IMG/VR virus record: IMGVR_UViG_2923350032_000001
Coordinates: 1-64,000 of that record
Origin: a virus
Lineage: Duplodnaviria > Heunggongvirae > Uroviricota > Caudoviricetes
Reading direction: 5' to 3' (one strand)
DNA: 64,000 nt
The notes beneath the pieces are model-generated. The model was not told the DNA's origin, made no database searches, and was given only the letters and a program-made list of their open reading frames with translations. Shown here one piece after another: positions 7,773 through 28,468 of the stretch; position 1 is the stretch's first letter; every line of letters begins with the position of its first letter. Position numbers and translations under genes: made by a program.

Positions 7773-8966
7773 GTGACCTGGGACGATCACAAGAAGAATT
7801 TTGCTCGCCTGGCGCGAGATGGTGGTTACACCATCGCACAGTATGCCGCCGAGTTTAATCTTAACCCTAATACCGCACGTCGTTATCTCCGTGCCTTCAA
7901 AGAAGACTCCAGGACTGCGGACAGCCGCAAGCCAAATAAGCCAGTCAGGAAGCCACTAAAAAGCATGATCATTGATCACTCTAATGATCAACATGCAGGT
8001 GATCATATTGCGGCTGAAATAGCGGAAAAACAGAGAGTTAATGCCGTTATCAGTGCCGCAGTCGAGAATGCGAAGCGCCAAAATAAGCGCATAAATGATC
8101 GTTCAGATGATCATGACGTGATCACCCGCGCCCACCGGACCTTACGTGATCGCCTGGAACGCGACACCCTGGATGATGATGGTGAACGCTTTGAATTCGA
8201 AGCTGGCGATTACCTGATAGATAACGTTGAAGCGCGGAAGGCCGCGCGCGCTATGTTGCGTCGGTCCGGGGCCGATGTTCTGGAAACCACTCTTCTTGAA
8301 AAGTCTCTTTCTCATCTCCTTATGCTGGAGAACGCCAGGGATACGTGTATTCGCCTGGTGCAGGAAATGCGCGATCAGCAAAAAGACGATGATGAAGGTA
8401 CTCCGCCTGAATACCGTATCGCGAGCATGCTAAACAGCTGTTCCGCGCAGATAAGCAGCCTGATCAACACCATTTACAGCATCCGGAATAACTATCGAAA
8501 AGAAAGCCGGGAGGCGGAAAAGCACGCTTTGTCTATGGGGCAAGCTGGCATTGTTAAGCTGGCATACGAACGAAAGCGTGAAAATAACTGGTCAGTGCTG
8601 GAAGCAGCTGAATTCATCGAGGCGCATGGCGGGAAAGTGCCGCCCCTGATGCTGGAGCAAATCAAAGCCGATCTGCGTGCTCCTAAGACCAATACCGATG
8701 ATGAGGAAAGGCAAACAGCCGTCGGTGGCCCTTCTCTTGAAGATCTGGACAAAGTTGCGCGAGAACGGGCCGCCAACCGCCGCGCCGATGCCGCATTGTG
8801 GATTGAGCAGCGTAGGGAAGAAATCGCCGATATCGTTGATACAGGCGGTTATGGAGATGTTGATACTGAAGGTGTATCAAACGACCCATGGCTGGAACAA
8901 GACCTGGACGAAGACGAGGAGGAAGACGAAGAAGTTACCCGCAAGCTATACGGGGATGATGATTAA
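7773..8966 (+). CDS. pacA: Terminase small subunit PacA
   Basis: 397-aa ORF containing the pac site, acidic C-terminus, followed by pacB. Confidence 0.85.
7964..8127. other. pac: pac packaging site: 4 + 3 TGATCA/G hexamers (Dam sites) flanking the cleavage region
   Basis: GATC hexamers at about 7966, 7974, 7985, 8001 and about 8097, 8109, 8121 inside pacA. Confidence 0.85.
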
Positions 8967-10450
8967 TGGCCAGAAGTTGCGTAACGGATCCACGTTGGCG
9001 CGAGCTGGTGGCGCTATATCGTTATGACTGGATTGCTGCCGCTGATGTTTTGTTCGGCAAAACACCTACCTGGCAGCAGGATCTGATTATTGAGTCTGTG
9101 CAGGAACAGGGTAGCAAGACATCTGTTTCGTCTGGTCACGGTACCGGGAAATCAGACATGACTTCTATCATGATCATGTTGTTCATAATCATGTATCCCG
9201 GTGCCCGCGCCATTATCGTTGCGAACAAAATTCAGCAGGTAATGACCGGTATATTCAAGTACATCAAGATAAACTGGGCTACTGCCACCAGCCGTTTCCC
9301 ATGGCTTGCTGATTATTTTGTTCTGACAGAAACCGCTTTCTATGAGGTTACAGGTAAAGGTGTATGGACTGTAGTACCGAAGGGCTTTCGTCTGGGAAGT
9401 GAAGAAGCTCTCGCCGGTGAACACGCAGATCATCTTCTGTATATTATCGATGAAGCCTCCGGTGTCAGTGATAGAGCTTTCGGTATCATCACCGGTGCTC
9501 TTACCGGACAGGATAACCGCATCTTATTACTGTCACAGCCTACACGCCCAAGCGGCTATTTCTACGATACACACCATAAACTGGCCAAGCGTCCTGGTAA
9601 CCCTGATGGCGTTTATACGGCGATCACGCTTAACAGTGAGGAATCACCGTTGGTAACGCCAGCATTTATCAAAATGAAGCTGGCGGAGTACGGCGGGCGT
9701 GATAACCCTATGTACATGATTAAGGTACGCGGCCTATTCCCTAAATCACAGGATGGCTTCCTTCTTGGACGTGATGAGGTTGAACGTGCAACGCGGCGGA
9801 AAGTCAAGATTGCCAAAGGATGGGGCTGGCTTGCATGTGTGGACGTTGCTGGTGGTACGGGACGGGATAAGTCCGTTATCAATATCATGATGGTGTCCGG
9901 CCAGCGAAATAAACGCCGTGTAATCAACTATCGAATGCTGGAATACACAGACGTTACAGAAACGCAGCTTGCCGCCAAAATTTTCGCAGAATGTAATCCT
10001 GAGCGATTCCCAAATATCACCATAGCGATAGACGGCGATGGGCTGGGTAAAGCAACGGCGGATCTGATGTACGAGTATTATGGTATTACCGTACAGCGTA
10101 TACGCTGGGGTAAAAAGATGCATAGCCGTGAAGATAAGAGCCTGTACTTTGATAAACGTGCTTATGCCAACGTTCAAGCCGCAGAGGCCGTAAAATCTGG
10201 TCGTATGAGACTGGATAAGGGTAATGAAACTATTGAGGAAGCGTCGAAAATCCCTGTAGGGATTAACTCCGCAGGTCAATGGAAGGTGATGAGTAAGGAG
10301 GATATGAAGAAAAAACTCAACCTGCACTCACCAGACCATTGGGATACATATTGTTTCGCTATGCTGGCGGATTATGTTCCCCAGGATGAAGTGCTTAGCG
10401 TCGAAGACGAAGCGCAGGTTGATGAAGCTCTGGCATGGCTTAATGAATGA
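8966..10450 (+). CDS. pacB: Terminase large subunit PacB
   Basis: 494-aa ORF, start overlaps the pacA stop. Confidence 0.85.
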
Positions 10451-10453
10451 ATA

Positions 10454-10470
10454 TTTGCTCTAATAAATTG
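10454..10470 (+). promoter_or_regulatory. C1 operator (TTTGCTCTAATAAATTG)
   Basis: 16/17 match to the P1 C1 operator consensus, 4 bp after the pacB stop and upstream of the icd-like/ant-like genes. Confidence 0.7.
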
Positions 10471-10597
10471 TGTTTTTTAACTGCCGATGTTACATTGAAC
10501 CTGACCTCTTGCGCCTTGAGGCATTTTCGGTTTATGCTTATCAGGCACCTCATTAAAACGGGTGCCGGGATTGAGACCCCGGATAATGCAAAAGGCG

Positions 10598-10622
10598 ACA
10601 CAGACGCCAAAAGCGTCTTTTT
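10598..10622 (+). terminator. Rho-independent terminator-like hairpin (AGACGC-CAAAA-GCGTCT + T8)
   Basis: Perfect 6-bp stem followed by TTTTTTTT. Confidence 0.45.
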
Positions 10623-10810
10623 TTTGTGTCATGCCATCGCACAGCCATACGTAGCGTTTAGCTCAGAGATCAATGGTAGTGCTGGCTGGGCTGCCGAAAG
10701 GCAGGCCGGTTCCCTTTTGCGCCGGTAGTCTCAACCCAGTCAGTGCTACCGCCATTGAGATTGAGACCTCACGCGGTAGCTCCTTAAATTAGCAAAAGGA
10801 GGCTGCCATT

Positions 10811-11032
10811 GTGGCTACTATCCCTACCCCTGCTCATCCTGAATTTATCTGGCGCTTTTACTCCTGCCAAAAACGTCACTATCACTTCGTTATTGCACCG
10901 ACAGAAGATGAGGCACGTTCTCAGCTTCCTGACGCCCCATGTATTTTCTCTGCCCGTTTTTCCACTGATTCACGCAATTCTCTCAGTTACTGGTGCCTCC
11001 CTGTTAACGCTTCTGCTCAGGAGGGACTATGA
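10811..11032 (+). CDS. Icd-like small protein (cell-division inhibitor / Ash family), extra copy
   Basis: 73-aa ORF, paralog of ORF 24261-24482 (EFIWRFYSC..HYHFVIA.TEDEARSQLPD..CIF.ARFST.SRNSLSYW shared). Confidence 0.6.
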   Translation: MATIPTPAHPEFIWRFYSCQKRHYHFVIAPTEDEARSQLPDAPCIFSARFSTDSRNSLSYWCLPVNASAQEGL

Positions 11033-12141
11033 GAACATCGTTAGTTACCCGTGAAGAGATGATCGAGGCAATTGAACAGCACACTGCCTGTATCAGTACC
11101 AGGGATATACCTGGCGTTATTGCCAACTACTTCATGATCACCAAACAACTTTACCGGAGAAAGGACAAGAACGCGGTTCACCGTATCCTGCTGTCTGATA
11201 TCCGCGAATACCTGCTCGAACAGGGGCATCTGAATTACGCAACCGTCGCAGCCGAAGCACGCAAGGAGGCACACAGAATGAAAGCAACTAACGTTAAATC
11301 AGAAAAAATTTATGCACCTTCAGTTCAGGAATCGGAACTGGTGGTTGTTCAGAATCAGCCGGATGAAATTCCCGTTCTGGAATGGCAGGGAGTACGTGTC
11401 GTGACAACCGAAACTCTTGCTAGAGGGTATGGGGTCGATGAAGCCAATATTCGCAACAATTTGTCTCGCAACCTTGACCGCTTTGAAGAAGGTAAGCATT
11501 ACTTTCTTCTAACAGGTTTAAAATTAAGAGAATTTAAGAACAGAGTAACCGGAAGTTACTCTGTTGGTAAGAACGCCAGAAGCCTTACACTCTGGACAGA
11601 GCGCGGCGCTGCACGCATGTCTAAGATCGTGGACACAAATGAAGCATGGGCATTCTTTGAAAAACTGGAAGACAGCTACTTCCGACAAAAAGAACAGCAA
11701 CCGATCGCAATCCCCCAGACGCTTCCTGAAGCCCTACGCCTGGCTGCCGAACTGGCTGAACAAAAGCAGCTTCTGGAACAGAAAGCCCACCAGCTAAATC
11801 AGCAGCTGGTGGCCGCCGCTCCTAAGGTCGATTTTGCCGACCGGGTATCAGTAGCTAAAGGGATCCTGATTGGGAATTTTGCAAAGGTTGTTGGACTTAA
11901 GCAAAACGCGCTGTTTGCCTGGTTACGGGAGAACGGCATTCTGATAGCGTCCGGCGGGCGTAAAAATGTGCCGTTCCAGCAGTACATAAACGCCGGATAT
12001 TTCACAGTGAAAGAAGTGGTGCTGGATGATGAAGATGGCTACCAGATACGGCTGACGCCCCAATTAACGGGGAAAGGACAACAGTGGTTGACGCGTAAAC
12101 TGCTCGATGCTGGCTTGTTAAAACCGGTGGCGGCTGAATAA
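11029..12141 (+). CDS. Antirepressor-like protein (Ant/KilA-N domain plus Ant C-terminal domain)
   Basis: 370-aa ORF coupled to the icd-like gene; C-terminal 150 aa nearly identical to ORF 25081-25524 and similar to the C-terminus of KilA. Confidence 0.7.
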   Translation: MRTSLVTREEMIEAIEQHTACISTRDIPGVIANYFMITKQLYRRKDKNAVHRILLSDIREYLLEQGHLNYATVAAEARKEAHRMKATNVKSEKIYAPSVQESELVVVQNQPDEIPVLEWQGVRVVTTETLARGYGVDEANIRNNLSRNLDRFEEGKHYFLLTGLKLREFKNRVTGSYSVGKNARSLTLWTERGAARMSKIVDTNEAWAFFEKLEDSYFRQKEQQPIAIPQTLPEALRLAAELAEQKQLLEQKAHQLNQQLVAAAPKVDFADRVSVAKGILIGNFAKVVGLKQNALFAWLRENGILIASGGRKNVPFQQYINAGYFTVKEVVLDDEDGYQIRLTPQLTGKGQQWLTRKLLDAGLLKPVAAE

Positions 12142-12147
12142 TGGAAG

Positions 12148-12170
12148 AATGCCCGGTTGATGCCGGGCAT
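12148..12170. terminator. Hairpin between convergent ant-like and c1 genes (GCCCGG-TTGAT-GCCGGGC)
   Basis: Stem-loop in the 32-bp gap between two convergent stop codons. Confidence 0.35.
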
Positions 12171-12173
12171 AAT

Positions 12174-13025
12174 TTATTGCGCGCTTTCGGGGTTGTCGTT
12201 TACTGGCTGCCCCTTCTTAGTTTTACGACTGCGCGTAACTGATGCGGCTGATTTGACCTTTTTCTCTTCGCGAGTGATGGCAATTTGTTTTTTTACATTT
12301 TCAATATCTGCCAGGCGATATATTTTTGCCTGCGGCCAGCGGTCGCAGATGATCGGTTCTATGGAGTCATAAAGGCTAAATTTTGCTTTTTCGAATTCAC
12401 CGTTGATGATAATTCCATCACGGAGAGTTTCATCGCAGATAAACACGCCACACAGTGGCACATGGTAACTAACTGATTTACCATCATTGTAGTTAGGGCT
12501 ACTGGAAATGTAGTGGACGCGCAGCATTGTTTCGCTAAAGCCGTGTACGCGCATACGGAATTTTTCATCCTCCGGGTACTGCTTCATTAGCTCTTTTGTT
12601 GCTTCCAGGTTCTCTATGTATTTCGCACTGTGCTCATTGATCCCCGCGCTTTTTTGGATGCGAATGTCCTTATCAATCAGATGAATAATGCGGCCAGCGG
12701 TCATGTTGACGCTGTTCACAGCCTCTGTCTGATAAGTTGTAACCTTACGCACACCGCGAAGGATGTTAGGCACTGGATATAAAATAGTCTTTGGGATATT
12801 GAGGTCTGGGTACTGTTCCAGTTCCCGCGCCATTAAAGTCCATTTATCAATTTCAGCCTGAATGCTGTCAGTTTCTTTGAACGGTAGAACGACAACCGGG
12901 CGTACAGGACGACCGTCGCTGGCTGTATCAACGTGTTGGGCGCGTGCAACAGCTTTTTTTAGAAAGAGATCCCTGAAGCTGACGAACTCCTGGTACAGTT
13001 GTTCGCCGTAGACATAATTTATCAT
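12174..13025 (-). CDS. c1: C1 repressor of lysis
   Basis: 283-aa ORF MINYVYGEQLYQEFVSFRDLFLKK... matches remembered P1 C1. Confidence 0.95.
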   Translation of the reverse strand: MINYVYGEQLYQEFVSFRDLFLKKAVARAQHVDTASDGRPVRPVVVLPFKETDSIQAEIDKWTLMARELEQYPDLNIPKTILYPVPNILRGVRKVTTYQTEAVNSVNMTAGRIIHLIDKDIRIQKSAGINEHSAKYIENLEATKELMKQYPEDEKFRMRVHGFSETMLRVHYISSSPNYNDGKSVSYHVPLCGVFICDETLRDGIIINGEFEKAKFSLYDSIEPIICDRWPQAKIYRLADIENVKKQIAITREEKKVKSAASVTRSRKTKKGQPVNDNPESAQ

Positions 13026-13119: not shown

Positions 13120-13136
13120 AGATTTATTAGTGCATT
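13120..13136 (-). promoter_or_regulatory. Weak C1 operator-like site between coi and c1
   Basis: 14/17 match to reverse-complement consensus. Confidence 0.3.
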
Positions 13137-13345
13137 TATTGTGAGTCTAACTGGTTAGTTGCCATGAGATATTCGATTGTGTCAGTGAGGTCATCCAGGT
13201 CGTCTTGGGTGATGCGGTACTCCTGATTGGATATCTTTGAGTAGTGTTCAGCAATGGCGCGGGCAGCGTCGGTTTCGGCAGGGTCTACAGATAAAGCGTT
13301 AGAGCAATGTCTAACGTCGTCGATGGTTGGTTGAATGAAAGCCAT
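13136..13345 (-). CDS. coi: Coi, C1 inactivator
   Basis: 69-aa ORF immediately upstream of c1 on the same strand. Confidence 0.85.
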   Translation of the reverse strand: MAFIQPTIDDVRHCSNALSVDPAETDAARAIAEHYSKISNQEYRITQDDLDDLTDTIEYLMATNQLDSQ

Positions 13346-14178: not shown

Positions 14179-15210
14179 ATGTCCAATTTACTGACCGTAC
14201 ACCAAAATTTGCCTGCATTACCGGTCGATGCAACGAGTGATGAGGTTCGCAAGAACCTGATGGACATGTTCAGGGATCGCCAGGCGTTTTCTGAGCATAC
14301 CTGGAAAATGCTTCTGTCCGTTTGCCGGTCGTGGGCGGCATGGTGCAAGTTGAATAACCGGAAATGGTTTCCCGCAGAACCTGAAGATGTTCGCGATTAT
14401 CTTCTATATCTTCAGGCGCGCGGTCTGGCAGTAAAAACTATCCAGCAACATTTGGGCCAGCTAAACATGCTTCATCGTCGGTCCGGGCTGCCACGACCAA
14501 GTGACAGTAATGCTGTTTCACTGGTCATGCGACGGATCCGAAAAGAAAACGTTGATGCCGGTGAACGTGCAAAACAGGCTCTAGCGTTCGAACGCACTGA
14601 TTTCGACCAGGTTCGTTCACTCATGGAAAATAGCGATCGCTGCCAGGATATACGTAATCTGGCATTTCTGGGGATTGCTTATAACACCCTGTTACGTATA
14701 GCCGAAATTACCAGGATCAGGGTTAAAGATATCTCACGTACTGACGGTGGGAGAATGTTAATTCATATTGGCAGAACGAAAACGCTGGTTAGCACCGCAG
14801 GTGTAGAGAAGGCACTTAGCCTGGGGGTAACTAAACTGGTCGAGCGATGGATTTCCGTCTCTGGTGTAGCTGATGATCCGAATAACTACCTGTTTTGCCG
14901 GGTCAGAAAAAATGGTGTTGCCGCGCCATCTGCCACCAGCCAGCTATCAACTCGCGCCCTGGAAGGGATTTTTGAAGCAACTCATCGATTGATTTACGGC
15001 GCTAAGGATGACTCTGGTCAGAGATACCTGGCCTGGTCTGGACACAGTGCCCGTGTCGGAGCCGCGCGAGATATGGCCCGCGCCGGAGTTTCAATACCGG
15101 AGATCATGCAAGCTGGTGGCTGGACCAACGTAAATATTGTCATGAACTATATCCGTAACCTGGATAGTGAAACAGGGGCAATGGTGCGCCTGCTGGAAGA
15201 TGGCGATTAG
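14179..15210 (+). CDS. cre: Cre site-specific tyrosine recombinase
   Basis: 343-aa ORF MSNLLTVHQNLPALPVDATSDEVRKNLMDMFRDRQAFSEHTWK... matches remembered P1 Cre. Confidence 0.98.
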   Translation: MSNLLTVHQNLPALPVDATSDEVRKNLMDMFRDRQAFSEHTWKMLLSVCRSWAAWCKLNNRKWFPAEPEDVRDYLLYLQARGLAVKTIQQHLGQLNMLHRRSGLPRPSDSNAVSLVMRRIRKENVDAGERAKQALAFERTDFDQVRSLMENSDRCQDIRNLAFLGIAYNTLLRIAEITRIRVKDISRTDGGRMLIHIGRTKTLVSTAGVEKALSLGVTKLVERWISVSGVADDPNNYLFCRVRKNGVAAPSATSQLSTRALEGIFEATHRLIYGAKDDSGQRYLAWSGHSARVGAARDMARAGVSIPEIMQAGGWTNVNIVMNYIRNLDSETGAMVRLLEDGD

Positions 15211-15721: not shown

Positions 15722-15820
15722 TTATAATTGAGCCGCAGTTTTTGTCAACTACGAAGACGTTGCCATTACTTCACTCCTTGACATCATTGGCGGCCATTAG
15801 GCCGCCTTTTTTTTGACCAT

Positions 15821-21963: not shown

Positions 21964-23196
21964 TTATTTGAATATATCGGTTATAGTTGGGTAATTATAC
22001 ATCTTAAGCTTATCTCTAAATTTCATAGAAAATATAGGGTCTACCTTACATCTCTGTGAGAGCTTTGCAAGCCTTAGCTCCCTCTCTTTCATAATATCTT
22101 TGTATTCTCTATCAATACTCTCCTGAATTTGCTGATTCTCAACAGGAGACGGTTTTGTAATTTTATCCCATTGATAAGTTGGATTCTCAGTGTAATTTAA
22201 ATCATCATTTTGAAGTAATTTCTCAAGATGAGACATAGCATTTTCATATAGCATTCTATCTTGGGGCAACATACTTGCAACACGCACTTCGCTTTCAATT
22301 TCCGATACTATCATTTCAAGTTGACGTTTTTCCATCGCTATAGCTACACGGAATGGAAACAGGGCTTCTTGCTTAATCATTTGACAATTCACATTATTGT
22401 TTATGTCACTAAGTAATTTTACAAATGAGAACTTCGCTAAAGGCTGCTGATTTATGACACTCTGTCTAACTGGCATTGTGTAGCTCGGTGTTTTTTCAAG
22501 TGTTTTCTTCACTTGCTCTATAGCAACATTAGGAGTTTTGAGAACAGTCTTTGCTGGAATACGTAGCACCATAAACCCCTCCTTTATTGAATATTCATCA
22601 CGAATACGATCTCGCTCTATTTGTTCAGGGGATGAATGCCATGCTGCACCATCAATTTCTATAATTTGGCGTCCATTTACGACAAAATCAAAACGATAAC
22701 GCTTATAGGGCACTTGCATTTCAAGCACTAAGTCAGGAGAAACTAACATTCCAGATTTAGGTTTAAGATTAAACTCTGCAACCATTTTACGAAGAAATGC
22801 CTCCTCAGCCGGAGATTCGCAACCTTTGCAAAATATATCAAGCCAGTTTTCTGCGTCAGCGTCAACAGTTTGCCACCATGCTAACAGTCCGCGTCGGTGT
22901 CCATATAATCGTTCATCTGACGGTTTTGTTAATGGCTTTGTTAACGGTTTAATTAAGGGTTCATTTAACGGCTTATTTAACGGATTTAATAACGATTCAT
23001 TTAATGGTTTGATTGACGGTCTATTTGACGACTCAATCGGTGGTTTAGATGATGATTTGTTTTTTTTATCAAAACCTACGATAGTTATATATGCTACATA
23101 TAGCATCATGCCTGCAACAGGCCATACACATGGATAAATCACGTAACACAACAGTAATAGAACAATAGTCCCAAAAAATGTTAACTTCTTCCGCAT
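21964..23196 (-). CDS. Membrane-anchored protein with Pro-rich tetrapeptide repeats and a DUF559/Vsr-like endonuclease-fold domain
   Basis: 410 aa; N-terminal TM helices; PLNKPLNEPLIKPLTKPLTKP repeats; motif IEIDGAAWHSS...RDRIRDEY...GFMVLRI; low-GC gene. Confidence 0.55.
   Translation of the reverse strand: MRKKLTFFGTIVLLLLCYVIYPCVWPVAGMMLYVAYITIVGFDKKNKSSSKPPIESSNRPSIKPLNESLLNPLNKPLNEPLIKPLTKPLTKPSDERLYGHRRGLLAWWQTVDADAENWLDIFCKGCESPAEEAFLRKMVAEFNLKPKSGMLVSPDLVLEMQVPYKRYRFDFVVNGRQIIEIDGAAWHSSPEQIERDRIRDEYSIKEGFMVLRIPAKTVLKTPNVAIEQVKKTLEKTPSYTMPVRQSVINQQPLAKFSFVKLLSDINNNVNCQMIKQEALFPFRVAIAMEKRQLEMIVSEIESEVRVASMLPQDRMLYENAMSHLEKLLQNDDLNYTENPTYQWDKITKPSPVENQQIQESIDREYKDIMKERELRLAKLSQRCKVDPIFSMKFRDKLKMYNYPTITDIFK
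22922..23030. repeat. Imperfect 12-bp tandem repeat array (about 9 units) inside ORF 21964-23196
   Basis: Units GGNTTNNTTAAY repeated head to tail; encodes the Pro-rich tetrapeptide repeats. Confidence 0.7.
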
Positions 23197-23269
23197 ACCA
23201 AACTCTTTGCATCAATAAAGGGGGCTGGCTTATATAATCAAATCACATGCCCGAAATAAAAGATGACCA

Positions 23270-23706
23270 ACACCAACGGAAATAACACTCTAAAGCTCCA
23301 CCGCCAGCACCACCAGCACCACCAGCACCACCAGCACCACCAGCACCACCAGCAACTGCACCCAAGGTAGAAGTTCCTTTAATATTATATCCAGTAACAC
23401 TACCAGCTACTGCACCGAGAACAGCACCGAAAGTCTGAGCTGCTTATTTATTAGCTGTATTATCAACTTTTACTTTGGCTGGGAGAACAGAGATTATATT
23501 TACTACTCTTGTTTTGAATTAAGTTGGGCTGTGTCGTACACATCTGCCGCATATTCAGCACCATTAGACTGACACCCTGAGAGAAAAATTGCAGAAACAA
23601 CCATGACGCATAAAGAAGAAATTTTAGCCATTAGAATCATCCCAGAAAAAAATATAATCCAAGAAAATCTATCACATAAGCCAAATACAAACAAGATTAC
23701 AAACAA
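23270..23706 (-). pseudogene. Decayed SlyB/Pcp-like glycine-zipper outer-membrane lipoprotein
   Basis: ORF 23503-23706 has a lipobox (AIFLSGC) and DVYDTAQLNSKQ resembling SlyB; downstream in another frame a Gly-zipper GAVLGAVAGSVTG...(GAG)5 follows, separated by stop codons. Confidence 0.4.
23305..23349. repeat. Perfect 9-bp tandem repeat CAGCACCAC x5
   Basis: Direct reading; encodes (Gly-Ala-Gly)5 on the minus strand. Confidence 0.9.
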
Positions 23707-23931: not shown

Positions 23932-23948
23932 TTCGCTCTAATAAATTT
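23932..23948 (+). promoter_or_regulatory. C1 operator-like site upstream of the immI-like module
   Basis: TTCGCTCTAATAAATTT, 15/17 to consensus, about 310 bp upstream of icd. Confidence 0.55.
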
Positions 23949-24099
23949 GTATTTTTAAGTCGCGAATGCTATCTTTTCGCATCATATTGACCTTTTAATC
24001 GTTCAGGCTTGTAGTTCCGCCGTCGTAGCAAATTCTGCGACCGGGTTTAGCAGCCTGAATACTTACGCGGACAACCGCAGATTTCCGATATTGCGGTAT

Positions 24100-24255
24100 T
24101 TTTGTGTCCGTAAACCACGTTACGCCCGAATTATGGTGGGGCGTGATGGGGAGGCTTCGGCCTGCTGGTTTCGTAAGTGCCAGTCTGCTAACCCCGTCAC
24201 GTCCTGCCACCTGTTTAGCAGCGGGTCGCAGGTTGTTTATCAACTTACGAGGCCG
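24100..24255 (+). ncRNA. c4: Candidate c4-type antisense regulatory RNA region
   Basis: Position between operator and icd; GC-rich hairpins; TTTTTGTGTC element shared with the paralogous region at about 10617; not verified against the P1 c4 sequence. Confidence 0.3.
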
Positions 24256-24260
24256 TAACT

Positions 24261-24482
24261 ATGGTTAATGCCAATCCTTGCGCACGCCAAGAATTCATCT
24301 GGCGTTTCTATTCCTGTAAAAAACACCACTATCACTTCGTTATCGCAGCAACAGAAGACGAAGCACGCTCTCAATTGCCTGATGGCCCCTGCATTTTTAC
24401 TGCCCGTTTTTCAACTAACTCGCGCAATTCACTTAGTTACTGGAGCCTCCCCTTCTCTGCCGACGTTCAGGGGGGTTTATGA
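24261..24482 (+). CDS. icd: Icd-like protein
   Basis: 73-aa ORF, 4-bp overlap with the ant start. Confidence 0.65.
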   Translation: MVNANPCARQEFIWRFYSCKKHHYHFVIAATEDEARSQLPDGPCIFTARFSTNSRNSLSYWSLPFSADVQGGL

Positions 24483-25524
24483 AAACACCTCTCGTCACCC
24501 GTAATGAAATAGCCGAAGCGATCGCCTTGCATACTGCCTGTATGCCGACACGGGAGACCCCCGGCGCAATTGCCAACTATTTCATGATAACCAGACGTTT
24601 TTATACCCGAACAGATAAGGCTGTGATCAACAGGCTACTGATAGCCGAGATCAGGGATTATTTGATTGAACAAGGACGTCTACGTTACGCAACAGTGGCA
24701 GCAGAAATGAGAAAGGAGGCGCGCAGAATGACCGGTAATAATTTGAATGTTGAAAAACCAGCACCTGTTGCTTCAGCTACGCCATCACCAGCTGTGAATG
24801 TTATCTCCAACACTGGAGACACAATCGACAGCCAGACACTGTTAAAGATGGTCAATGAAGCGCGTAAGTTATGTGTGGAACCAGAGGTTCGGAACAACAA
24901 ATTCATCGAAAAAATACTCGACGAATTAGAAGGTGAGGACGGTTACACAAAAAGTGCAACCGTGCCGCCAGGTGGCGGTACGCCTATGGTTGTCATAACC
25001 ATGACCTACAAACAAGCCCTGCGAGTCGCGCGCGCGAGTCAAAAGCGGTCCGCCGTTCGCTGATCGACAAACTGGAAGAATTGCAGCAGGCATACTCCCC
25101 TGCCCCATCGATCCCCCAAACATTACCAGAAGCTCTACGCATGGCTGCCGAGTTGGCAGAGCAGAAAATGCAGTTGGAACAGCAGCTGGTGGCCGCAGCC
25201 CCTAAAGTCGATTTTGCCGACCGGGTATCAGTGGCCAATGGAATCCTGATCGGGAACTTTGCAAAGGTCGTTGGACTTAAGCAAAACGCCCTTTTCTCAT
25301 GGTTGCGCCAGAACGGCATTCTCATGGCTTTTGGAGCGCGCAAAAACGTACCGCGCCAACAGTACATCAATGCGGGGTATTTCACGGTGAAAGAAGTGGT
25401 GCTGGATGATGAAAATGGCTACCAGATACGGCTGACGCCCCAATTAACGGGTAAAGGCCAGCAGTGGTTAACTCGCAAGCTACTTGATGCTGGTTTGTTA
25501 AAACCAGTGGCGTCCTTGTCTTAA
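24479..25524 (+). pseudogene. ant: Antirepressor Ant, apparently frameshifted into two ORFs
   Basis: ORFs 24479-25063 and 25081-25524 together parallel the 370-aa protein at 11029-12141; frame change near a GCGCGCGCG run around 25030-25065. Confidence 0.55.
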
Positions 25525-26077
25525 CGTATTCAGACCAGGATTTGCCATAAATTACAGGCATGTGTACGATATGCCCAACCCTGTTTTTCAGGGGAGGCGC
25601 AACGTTATGCGGGGGTTATGAACTCCTGGATGCGTAGCCTCCAGACAGAAAAAACCCTCGCCACAACGTTGCATGGAGGCAACCAGCGAGGGCATTCCTT
25701 ATGTCTGATCAACAAGAGGATAGCCGCAAGCAGTTGCTGTTGCAAGTGTGCGGAGCTTCGTAATGACTCTTCAAAAAGCTTGCAAGTGGATTGTGACCAA
25801 CATCATTGTTCCTGTCATCATCGGAGCTTCAAGTTCTGTGTTGGCATCAGTGATTGCCTCACTTCTCCACATTGCATAACAACATTGAAGGGCGTTAGTT
25901 CGCAGTGTAACAGCAGCGCGTTGCGCCCGAACAGGCCACAGGGTAAAACCTGTGGCCTTTTTCGTTTTAGCCAGCCACAAATCCACATTGAAAAACGCCT
26001 TATACAAAAAAACCTGCCAGCAAACTGGCAGGTTTCTGAGCAGTTCGACCAACCCGATCTGGATCGAGTCAGAAAAA

Positions 26078-26094
26078 TTTGCTCTAATAAATTT
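26078..26094 (+). promoter_or_regulatory. C1 operator upstream of kilA-repL
   Basis: TTTGCTCTAATAAATTT, 16/17. Confidence 0.75.
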
Positions 26095-26163: not shown

Positions 26164-26964
26164 ATGCAACAAACATTCAATGCGGATATGAATATATCAA
26201 ACCTTCATCAAAATGTCGATCCTTCAACCACTCTGCCTGTTATTTGTGGTGTTGAAATTACGACCGACCGCGCTGGCCGTTACAACCTTAATGCTCTACA
26301 CAGAGCGAGCGGACTCGGTGCCCATAAAGCGCCAGCTCAATGGCTAAGAACGCTGTCAGCCAAACAGCTCATCGAAGAGCTTGAAAAAGAAACTATGCAG
26401 AATTGCATAATTTCGTTCGAAGGCCGTGGCGGCGGCACTTTTGCCCATGAATTGCTCGCAGTGGAGTACGCTGGTTGGATTTCTCCCGCGTTTCGGCTGA
26501 AGGTAAACCAGACATTTATCGACTATCGAGCTGGAAGATTACAACCTGCTATTCCGAAGAGCCTCCCAGAAGCTCTCCGTTTGGCTGCCGACCTGGCAGA
26601 GCAAAAGCAACGGCTGGAGCAAAAAATGCTTATGGATGCACCTAAAGTCGAATTCGCCGAACGCGTTGCTACCGCCAGCGGGGTTCTAATCGGCAACTAT
26701 GCCAAAGTGCTCGGCCTGGGCCAAAACTATCTCTTCACCTGGTTGCGTGATAACGGAATTCTGATCGCAACCGGTGAACGCAGGAACGTCCCCAAACAAG
26801 AATACATATCCCGTGGGTATTTCACCCTTAAAGAAACCGTGATCGATACAAGCAATGGAAGCAGGATTTCTTTCACGACTCGTATAACCGGCAAAGGTCA
26901 GCAGTGGCTGATGAAGCGATTGCTTGATGCTGGTGTGCTGGTACCTGTCGCGGCAACGCGCTAA
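26164..26964 (+). CDS. kilA: KilA (KilA-N domain protein)
   Basis: 266-aa ORF with KilA-N/APSES-like N-terminus and Ant-like C-terminus, followed by repL. Confidence 0.8.
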   Translation: MQQTFNADMNISNLHQNVDPSTTLPVICGVEITTDRAGRYNLNALHRASGLGAHKAPAQWLRTLSAKQLIEELEKETMQNCIISFEGRGGGTFAHELLAVEYAGWISPAFRLKVNQTFIDYRAGRLQPAIPKSLPEALRLAADLAEQKQRLEQKMLMDAPKVEFAERVATASGVLIGNYAKVLGLGQNYLFTWLRDNGILIATGERRNVPKQEYISRGYFTLKETVIDTSNGSRISFTTRITGKGQQWLMKRLLDAGVLVPVAATR

Positions 26965-26993: not shown

Positions 26994-27839
26994 ATGCTGG
27001 CTAAAGTCACTTTCCTGAGCTGTATAACGATGAGCGATTTTACTTTTTCTGGCTATGAATTGGCCTGCTTTGTAACACACTCCGGTCTATCCCGTAGCGC
27101 CGGGCATATCCTGTCGCAATGTGCAAATCTCGCGGCAACAACCAGTGAATACTTCATTCACAAGCCTCACCGCCTGATCGCGGCAGAAACTGGTTATAGT
27201 CAATCAACCGTCGTTCGTGCATTCCGTGAAGCTGTAAACAAAGGAATCCTGTCTGTAGAGATTGTTATCGGCGATCACCGTGAACGTCGCGCTAACCTGT
27301 ACCGGTTTACACCATCCTTTTTGGCCTTCGCACAACAAGCCAAAAATGCGCTGATTGAAAGCAAATTAAAGATCTCTTCAGCGGCAACTAAGGTTAAAGC
27401 TGTTCTCGCTAAGACATTAGCTTTATTTAATTTTTTATCCACACCCCCATGTCAAAATGATACCCCCTCCCCCTGTCAGGATGACGTGGCAATAAAGAAT
27501 AAGAAGTCACAAGTTAAAAAAACAAAAAGATCAGTTTCCGGCGGTGCCGGAACGATCAGACTCAAAAAATTGACTTCATGGATCGCTGAGACAAAAGCAA
27601 AGGCTGACAATCTGCGGTTATCCAAAAAACGCGCTCAAAAACATGAGTTCAAGCAGAAAGTAGAGGCGGCAGCGCGGAAATATGCTTACCTGAAGAACAA
27701 GCGTTCTCCTGATATTGGCGGGGTATCAAACTTCGATAATCTGCCGCATTGCATGACGGTAAACGAAGCTCTTAATGCGGTTTTAGCCAAAAATAAAGAT
27801 AACGAACAATGGGGTATACCGGCAGGATTCAGAGGGTGA
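26994..27839 (+). CDS. repL: RepL, lytic replicon initiator (oriL expected inside)
   Basis: 281-aa ORF in the P1 kilA-repL arrangement. Confidence 0.85.
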   Translation: MLAKVTFLSCITMSDFTFSGYELACFVTHSGLSRSAGHILSQCANLAATTSEYFIHKPHRLIAAETGYSQSTVVRAFREAVNKGILSVEIVIGDHRERRANLYRFTPSFLAFAQQAKNALIESKLKISSAATKVKAVLAKTLALFNFLSTPPCQNDTPSPCQDDVAIKNKKSQVKKTKRSVSGGAGTIRLKKLTSWIAETKAKADNLRLSKKRAQKHEFKQKVEAAARKYAYLKNKRSPDIGGVSNFDNLPHCMTVNEALNAVLAKNKDNEQWGIPAGFRG

Positions 27840-28135: not shown

Positions 28136-28199
28136 TACAATCGTTGCGGGTGCTTGAGGCTATCTGCTTCAGGCATTACCCGAAAAGCAGATAGAAGAA

Positions 28200-28300
28200 A
28201 GCCCCAGATAACATTACGCGTCCTGCAAGACGCTTAACATTAATCTGAGGCCATATCTATGCTTAGCATACGTAGATTAGCCTCTTACCGACCAAAAGGT
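28200..28300 (-). ncRNA. sok: Expected Sok-type antisense RNA region
   Basis: Inferred from standard hok/mok/sok architecture only. Confidence 0.3.
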
Positions 28301-28468
28301 CAAGGAGAAGCAGGCTATGAAGCAGCAAAAAGCGATGTTAATCGCTCTGATCGTCATCTGTTTAACCGTCATTGTGACGGCACTGGTAACGAGGAAAGAC
28401 CTCTGCGAGGTACGAATCCGAACCGGCCAGACGGAGGTCACTGTCTTCACAGCCTACGAATCTGAAAG
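28259..28468 (+). CDS. mok: Mok-like overlapping reading frame of the hok locus
   Basis: 68-aa ORF overlapping hok in another frame. Confidence 0.5.

Follow-up and report, generated by a model that had tools for sequence, protein, structure and literature searches.

The 64,000-nucleotide stretch analysed here (positions 1 to 64,000 of IMG/VR record IMGVR_UViG_2923350032_000001; "the window" below means this whole stretch) is part of a P1-like phage-plasmid, and a block at 10451-12173, lying between the terminase gene pacB and the repressor gene c1, is probably a complete second immI-type immunity cassette, functional and regulated independently of the canonical immI copy in the same window. 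A sequence-only reading had pointed to two paralogous operator-icd-ant modules, at 10454-12141 (module 1, beside c1) and 23932-25524 (module 2, at the canonical place), and all of the elements it listed were found in both. In addition, an Rfam scan revealed that both modules encode a C4 antisense RNA and an upstream target leader, which that reading had not listed. Our interpretation draws on the anatomy of the block, RNA family membership, complementarity confined to cognate partners, covariation, purifying selection and distribution.

Anatomy of the cassette beside c1

In reference P1 (NC_005856), pacB ends at 93206 and c1, a complement feature, starts at 93231, which leaves 24 bp between the two stop codons. 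Alignment revealed that the window follows P1 exactly as far as the pacB stop and again from the c1 stop onward, with 1,723 bp in place of that spacer. P7, like P1 and SJ46, matches the block at the Ant C-terminus only. The reference phages P1 and P7 thus lack the module beside c1, as had been proposed for P1. Module 1 is thus positioned between pacB and c1 and not upstream of kilA-repL, where the other copy fills the canonical place. The whole block is present at 100% identity in NZ_CP142045.1 and NZ_CP158185.1. Its features and immediate flanks are as follows.

8966-10450, plus strand: pacB, terminase subunit, left flank of the block; its TGA stop ends at 10450 (open reading frame list; junction aligned to P1 pacB)
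10451-12173, plus strand: extra block relative to P1
10454-10470, plus strand: C1-operator-like site TTTGCTCTAATAAATTG, two mismatches to the consensus ATTGCTCTAATAAATTT, equivalent to P1 Op51/Oc4
10468-10496, plus strand: weak promoter-like hexamers TTGTGT-17-TACATT, aligned with P1 promoter P2c4 (P51a), whose -35 overlaps the operator
10545-10623, plus strand: IsrK-like leader RNA (Rfam RF01394 isrK, matched over model positions 1-77 with 59 bits; gathering score 50)
10571-10577, plus strand: site a1, TTGAGAC, in a hairpin loop of the folded leader
10588-10595, plus strand: site b1, GCAAAAGG, single-stranded in the leader fold
10602-10618, plus strand: intrinsic terminator hairpin of the leader, followed by a run of 8 T as far as 10626 (terminator scan)
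10669-10756, plus strand: C4-type antisense RNA (full-length match to Rfam model RF01695 with 75 bits; gathering score 45)
10713-10720, plus strand: C4 loop b', CCUUUUGC, in the loop region of the second hairpin of the minimum free energy fold
10728-10734, plus strand: C4 element a', GUCUCAA, in the unpaired stretch after the second hairpin of that fold
10761-10767, plus strand: downstream target a2, TTGAGAC, perfect complement of module 1 a' alone
10792-10799, plus strand: downstream target b2, GCAAAAGG, perfect complement of module 1 b' alone, overlapping the icd Shine-Dalgarno sequence AAGGAGG (10795-10801)
10811-11032, plus strand: icd-like gene, 73 amino acids, GTG start (NCBIfam phage_ICD_like, 49.8 bits against a cut-off of 25)
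11029-12141, plus strand: ant1, 370 amino acids (Pfam ANT 109 bits, ORF6N 66.6 bits)
11278-12141, plus strand: predicted ant2, from the in-frame internal start Met84, preceded by AAGGAGG (11263-11269) and positioned as in the annotated ant2 starts of P1, P7 and RCS47
12149-12170, plus strand: G+C-rich terminator-like hairpin between the convergent ant and c1, with a 9-bp stem of which 6 pairs are G-C (terminator scan)
12174-13025, minus strand: c1, right flank, convergent with ant (open reading frame list; "phage repressor protein C1" in the identical record)

When up to three mismatches to ATTGCTCTAATAAATTT were allowed, the window was found to hold 15 operator-like sites, against 0.34 expected by chance. 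The site in module 1 aligns with Op51 of the canonical copy, and in every P1-like cassette examined, at every genomic site, an operator lies approximately 320-350 nt upstream of icd. When aligned with P1 and with the canonical module, the sequence suggests a P51a-like promoter at the module 1 operator.

The C4 RNA of module 1 folds with a minimum free energy of -46.4 kcal/mol. Its targets are arranged as the P1 record (NC_005856) annotates them: a2 is the partner of a', and b2, directly beside the ribosome-binding site of icd, is that of b', with putative upstream partners, a1 and b1, marked for the two C4 elements as well. A separate point of annotation concerns the same RNA: a RefSeq coding sequence for a 39-amino-acid "ash family protein" (window 10673-10792, equal to NZ_CP142045.1 33609-33728) overlies the C4 RNA, and it is probably an RNA gene annotated as a protein.

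The two protein-coding genes are joined by an ATGA overlap of the ant start and the icd stop at 11029-11032. Ant1 comprises an Ant1-specific N-terminus (residues 1-83), an ORF6N domain (116-200) and a KilAC domain (258-359), and the in-frame Ant2 start is kept in both window modules. Comparison with P1 Ant1 gave 57% identity overall, with about two-thirds identity over residues 1-85 and about 90% over the C-terminal KilAC part. Both genes of module 1 are under purifying selection, the ratio of nonsynonymous to synonymous substitution rates (dN/dS) against relatives being 0.13-0.20 for ant and 0.03-0.08 for icd, and ant is full-length in nearly all of the IMG/VR loci that encode relatives of this protein.

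RNA specificity and its covariation

Each C4 RNA was searched against both leaders for perfect complements of at least 7 nt. The C4 of module 1 matches only its own a1, b1, a2 and b2, and the C4 of module 2 likewise matches only its own four sites; in this search neither a' nor b' of one module had a complement in the other, and the lone cross-module 7-mer falls in a stem of the module 1 C4. Duplex energies ranged from -9 to -12 kcal/mol when the elements were cognate and from -1 to -4 kcal/mol when they were not. Since the a and b sequences of the two cassettes differ (TTGAGAC and GCAAAAGG in module 1, TTAGCAG and ACTTACG in module 2), the two C4 RNAs should not cross-regulate, and the cassettes should be regulated independently.

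The same elements were then compared across relatives, in a sample of 78 IMG/VR loci encoding relatives of the module 1 Ant together with P1, P7, RCS47, JL22, 673R5, MH422554 and D6. The leaders form two well-aligned groups, an IsrK type (17 distinct among 40 sequences) and a P1 type (21 distinct among 26), and the a and b elements hold almost all of the leader variation. The variants are listed below.

IsrK-type leaders, a: TTGAGAC, TTGGAAC, TTGGCCT
IsrK-type leaders, b: GCAAAAGG, GTCAAAGG, GTCTAAGG
P1-type leaders, a: TTGACAG, TTAGCAG
P1-type leaders, b: GTTAGTG (P1), GATTGTG (P7), ACTTACG (window), GTACATG, ACGAATG, ACTTGTG

At least five a variants and at least nine b variants appear in many combinations, 15 in all. 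Throughout this variation, pairing is complete (100% of cells) for a'/a2, b'/b2, a1/a' and b1/b' in both groups (38 distinct leaders), and all of the variable pairs change two-sidedly, with no one-sided change (7-8 pairs, 45-70 cells). By inspection and pair counts, the TTGGCCT/GTCTAAGG type pairs with a G-U wobble. None of 500 shuffles attained the observed covariation score or paired fraction, and in a control in which the partners were slid by 1-3 columns only 24-55% paired. This constitutes strong comparative evidence that C4 would recognise its downstream and upstream sites alike, and it shows the predicted C4/target specificity to be diversifying. Heteroimmune P1 (TTGACAG/GTTAGTG) and P7 (TTAGCAG/GATTGTG) differ in exactly these a and b elements; the canonical cassette of the window is of neither P1 nor P7 type, having the a element of P7 and a different b.

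Distribution, the canonical copy and further cassettes

The contiguous pacB-module-c1-coi block was found in at least 245 PLSDB plasmids; at least 80% of the module is present in 305 PLSDB plasmids, and at least 80% of pacB in 557. In complete Escherichia coli genomes, 250 of 5,426 carry the module with both flanks, and 25 of the E. coli matches lie on the chromosome. Most of the 78 IMG/VR loci have the module at the pacB/c1 site, with PacB upstream and C1 downstream, and it occupies this site on diverged backbones (PacB approximately 100% or approximately 88% identical) and in several specificity types. The phages JL22, RCS47 and vB_EcoM-673R5 match the block at 97%, 94% and 91% identity, respectively. 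The insertion of the module has been mentioned in print (Venturini et al., 2019; PMC6906374), and a second c4-icd region was noted for the D6-like plasmid pYU39_89 (PMC6799933). P1-family genomes therefore do routinely carry the module between pacB and c1. The copy that had seemed additional is so relative to P1 and P7, but the rarity which this implied does not stand, since at least 245 of the 557 pacB-bearing PLSDB plasmids have the module there. The second icd-ant module beside c1 is thus a common accessory of P1-like plasmids, annotated in RefSeq and already in print. A literature search, with the original RCS47 and D6 papers outside its scope, found no paper on the module as an entire immI operon having a C4 specificity of its own, on orthogonal RNA specificities, or on the extra multi-cassette sites. 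The complete RNA circuit, the cognate-only pairing, the three-way covariation and the multi-site cassettes described here are accordingly an increment within a known kind of system.

The canonical copy (module 2) has the following features.

23932-25524, plus strand: canonical immI operon, 93.7% identical to P1 immI
23932-23948, plus strand: operator
24009-24061, plus strand: c4-a1b1 leader motif (Rfam, 51.4 bits)
24047-24053, plus strand: a1, TTAGCAG
24061-24067, plus strand: b1, ACTTACG
24129-24214, plus strand: C4 RNA (Rfam, 70.8 bits against a gathering score of 45)
24215-24221, plus strand: a2, TTAGCAG
24243-24250, plus strand: b2, ACTTACG(A)
24261-24482, plus strand: icd
24479-25524, plus strand: ant, split by a 1-nt deletion into 24479-25063 and 25081-25524
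25028-25031, plus strand: the 1-nt deletion in ant, one C lost after about 25029, GTCGCCGCGCG becoming GTCGCGCGCG

The two window modules are 79% identical overall at the DNA level, with a near-identical 3' end of ant and an unrelated central ant segment, and their Icd proteins are also 79% identical; the resemblance of the Icd proteins and the near-identity of the Ant C-termini (the KilAC ends) had been recognised from the sequence alone. As the copies are only 79% identical and differ in the central domain of Ant, they are paralogues and not an assembly duplication, a point on which hundreds of independent records agree.

It had also been proposed that the c1-side copy is intact and the canonical ant frameshifted, and alignment to five relatives (P1, JL22, RCS47, 673R5 and MH422554) confirmed this: relative to all of them one nucleotide is deleted, frame 0 of the canonical ant stops at 25063, and the KilAC part runs on in another frame. 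The NCBI Prokaryotic Genome Annotation Pipeline (PGAP) likewise flags the canonical ant as "frameshifted" in NZ_CP142045.1. The exact allele occurs in 1 of 470 PLSDB plasmids and in 2 of 468 E. coli genomes, the latter being NZ_CP142045.1 (from chicken) and NZ_CP158185.1 (from human urine). A pure sequencing error is unlikely, since these two independent assemblies have the same allele; the frameshift is a private mutation of one plasmid lineage. In that lineage, therefore, the c1-side cassette encodes the sole intact Ant. The suggestion that an intact second copy goes with a broken canonical one does not hold beyond this lineage, because JL22 and RCS47 have the module together with an intact canonical ant1 and the frameshift allele is confined to 2 of 468 genomes. 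A general trade-off between the two copies was rejected on the same ground; in 673R5 the canonical region is annotated as one open 1,260-nt coding sequence, "Ant1", that spans icd too.

Downstream of the canonical copy, between the ant stop and the kilA operator (26078-26094), approximately 475 bp of window 25525-26077 are absent from P1 and JL22, in which the gap is about 80 bp. PGAP calls a 133-amino-acid hypothetical protein on the minus strand of this segment, and of 495 E. coli genomes with a match to some part of the segment, only 8 have it in full.

Further cassettes of the order operator-C4-icd-ant were observed in relatives. They adjoin the window-equivalent position 15812 in five IMG/VR loci (L018, L020, L030, L075 and L079), lie beyond 16360 in two (L011 and L033), and lie between 51341 and 51398 in two others (L009 and L082); the window itself is empty at all three places. 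Several contigs bear 2-4 cassettes with this Ant type, and one of them, 2698536372_000019, has four, including a tandem pair. Where they could be typed, co-resident cassettes differ in a, b or both (a only in L018 and L082, b only in L030 and L046), the one exception being L066, at a contig end, where a cassette is duplicated in tandem with its type unchanged. Two loci combine parts of both cassettes or sites: in L062 the canonical site before kilA-repL is filled by a cassette of module 1 type, and L086 has a canonical-type leader and icd joined to the Ant C-terminus beside c1. Both look, from their arrangement, like products of recombination between cassette copies, which in the window are direct repeats.

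A broader proposal, which we put forward tentatively and would not yet call probable, is that P1-family phage-plasmids may hold a set of interchangeable cassettes, each an antirepressor operon controlled by a C1 operator and gated by an antisense RNA, at no fewer than five genomic sites, with as many as 3-4 to a contig and three or more in one genome. Their a/b code would be reshuffled combinatorially in an immunity arms race of orthogonal RNA locks and keys, and the a1/b1 leader would act as a built-in sponge that sets the C4 threshold.

Several other features of the region were recorded. The remaining landmark genes of the P1-like backbone are as follows.

7773-8966: pacA
13136-13345, minus strand: coi
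14179-15210: cre
26164-26964: kilA
26994-27839: repL

P1's 24-bp pacB/c1 spacer contains ATGCCGG, a match to the 3' arm of the hairpin that ends the inserted block (window 12149-12173); an ancestral cassette since lost from P1 might have left it behind, or the match might be due to chance. Just downstream of repL, window 28148-28322 gives a strong match to the sok antitoxin RNA (Rfam, 114.9 bits against a gathering score of 59), which suggests a hok/sok-type addiction module. Where P1 has the sim region, a 410-amino-acid open reading frame on the minus strand (21964-23196) contains a run of KPL(N/T)-type short repeats, and it adjoins a GGAGGAGCA-type simple repeat at 23243-23365, the translation of which is a Gly-Ala-Gly run. 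NZ_CP142045.1, which is 100% identical over both modules, loses collinearity with the window between them: in that record module 1 lies at 32-34 kb, module 2 at 83.6-84.9 kb. Rearrangement of the plasmid would account for this, as would an origin of the window in a different relative.

Proposed mechanism, alternatives and known systems

In the mechanism that we propose, a single transcript would start from the promoter overlapped by the C1 operator. Its first approximately 80 nt would form the IsrK-like leader, with a1 and b1, ending at the intrinsic terminator, and the RNA that reads through would be processed to yield the C4-type antisense RNA. The exposed a' and b' of C4 would then pair with a2 and b2 of the same mRNA; as b2 covers the icd ribosome-binding site, translation of icd would be blocked, and that of Ant1 and Ant2 with it through translational coupling, to which Rho-dependent polarity is added in P1. 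When C4 is limiting, or when DNA enters a cell without the cognate C4, Icd and Ant would be made and Ant may antagonise C1. To our knowledge, the a1 and b1 sites of P1 have no settled function. We propose that the terminated leader may serve as a decoy for C4, because it combines co-varying perfect copies of both targets with a terminator and because IsrK of Gifsy-1 activates in trans. By analogy with P1 and P7, a prophage with two orthogonal cassettes would silence incoming ant operons of either type, and as an infecting phage the element would escape unless the resident provides both types of C4.

The weakest link in this account is the step at which an Ant with an ORF6N centre would inactivate C1, and several observations weigh against it or against the account as a whole. 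Residues from about 86 to 225 of the module 1 Ant, a central stretch of about 140, have no meaningful alignment to P1 Ant1, and the ORF6N domain lies there. Homology to P1 Ant, for which KilAC is the sole Pfam match, does not extend over the whole length of the module 1 protein; because the centre is unrelated and of ORF6N type, the interaction of P1 Ant with C1 is not simply transferable to it. The KilAC domain is likewise carried by P1 KilA, and we know of no report of KilA as a C1 antirepressor. In addition, a leader with this RNA specificity precedes a Rha-type protein in D6, and the regulatory cassette is therefore not tied to one effector. On the transcriptional side, the operator-proximal hexamers are weak (7/12) and under the threshold of the consensus scan, which gave no convincing sigma-70 promoter beside the module 1 operator, and a promoter scan of module 1 gave no clear counterpart of the constitutive P1 promoter P51b.

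The ORF6N centre unrelated to P1 Ant and the Rha-type partner of such a leader in D6 lend some weight to an alternative in which the RNA-gated operon works but the target of Ant is not the element's own C1. Ant would then be a cargo weapon or regulator directed against another repressor, such as one from a lambdoid or D6-like prophage, or else would bind DNA through ORF6N and regulate in that way, and C4 would mainly protect the host or prophage from relatives with the same cassette. The chromosomal matches in E. coli fit such a role, as does the occurrence of IsrK/C4-type cassettes with Bro, KilA or Ant effectors across lambdoid prophages and satellites of the phage-inducible chromosomal island type (PMC10111431; PMC4825925). 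However, the module retains the P1-like Ant N-terminus, the KilAC C-terminus and the internal ant2 start; a C1 operator stands on every cassette of the P1-like genomes, tying the cassette to the C1 circuit; and the module 1 cassette directly adjoins c1. We therefore regard this alternative as unlikely, though worth keeping in mind.

A second alternative holds that the main payload is Icd, a reversible cell-division inhibitor, with Ant secondary or non-functional, so that the cassette would modulate host division after infection or derepression. In its favour, icd is the most constrained part of the cassette, and Icd is the sole protein common to all of the cassette variants, including that of D6. 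However, ant is also under purifying selection and nearly always full-length, and the conservation of icd is accounted for by the annotation in the P1 record (NC_005856) that icd is apparently required for ant expression. This explanation appears improbable to us. Finally, a reading of module 1 as an inactive remnant, or as an artefact of assembly or duplication, could call on the weak promoter hexamers and the tandem duplicate at one contig end, but it is hardly credible given the intact open reading frames, the purifying selection, the perfect RNA-target covariation, the divergence of the two window copies, and the presence of the module in hundreds of assemblies and three sequenced phages.

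If the proposed reading of module 1 as a C4-gated immunity cassette is correct, its wider meaning lies in the finding that P1-like elements commonly combine 2-3 cassettes with non-overlapping RNA specificities. Such cassettes may be useful as a natural library of orthogonal antisense RNA/target pairs, as a testable account of how immunity and compatibility are patterned among the P1-like plasmids by which resistance genes spread, and as a way into the role of the a1/b1 (IsrK-like) leader.

The closest known system is the immI region of P1 and P7 (Op51-c4-icd-ant1/ant2), which has the same order of parts as module 1: a C1 operator, a1/b1, C4, a2/b2 over the icd ribosome-binding site, icd, and ant1 with an in-frame ant2. 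One Rfam family covers both C4 RNAs, Icd identity is 79%, the N- and C-terminal parts of Ant are homologous, and the specificity logic is that which sets heteroimmune P1 and P7 apart. Module 1 differs in its position between pacB and c1, its IsrK-type leader with a clear intrinsic terminator, its TTGAGAC/GCAAAAGG specificity, its ORF6N-centred Ant and the lack of an identified P51b-like promoter.

The isrK-orf45-anrP locus of Salmonella prophage Gifsy-1 resembles module 1 in its leader, which in module 1 passes the Rfam isrK gathering score, and in having one promoter that gives a short terminated small RNA and a read-through mRNA, with a small open reading frame coupled (AUGA) to an anti-repressor gene; for module 1 this likeness is predicted from the sequence. 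IsrK has been reported to activate in trans, 140-fold, the translation of both the small upstream open reading frame and the anti-repressor gene coupled to it (Hershko-Shalev et al., 2016; PMC4825925). Unlike module 1, the Gifsy-1 locus belongs to a lambdoid prophage and encodes a different anti-repressor, and IsrK has been described as pairing with the 3' part of orf45 rather than with a separate C4 RNA (PMC4825925).

The second c4-icd locus of D6 (MF356679, orf83/82) has a leader, comprising the isrK-like part, C4 and the 5' end of icd, that shares 94.8% identity with window 10544-10872 and has the a/b specificity of module 1; the D6 locus, too, is a second copy in its genome. Its effector is a Rha-type regulator and not an ORF6N-KilAC protein, its genomic position is different, and an operator scan upstream of the D6 c4-icd leader found no P1-type C1 operator.

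In the immunity of satellite phage P4, a small processed RNA (CI RNA) pairs with two targets in the same transcript, seqA and seqB, shutting off the downstream genes. P4 CI acts through premature transcription termination and controls replication genes rather than an antirepressor. Unlike module 1, the P4 system has no C1 operator. The CI RNA is detected by the same Rfam C4 profile (PMC10111431), and the "ash family protein" name that PGAP gives to the C4 region of module 1 is a further likeness.

More distantly, the immI region of P22 (ant, the sar antisense RNA, arc and mnt) is also a secondary immunity region whose antirepressor is silent in the lysogen, partly via an antisense RNA. Its components are unrelated to those of module 1 and its control is exerted by the Mnt and Arc protein repressors, so that P22 offers an analogy of logic and not a shared membership with the cassette described here.

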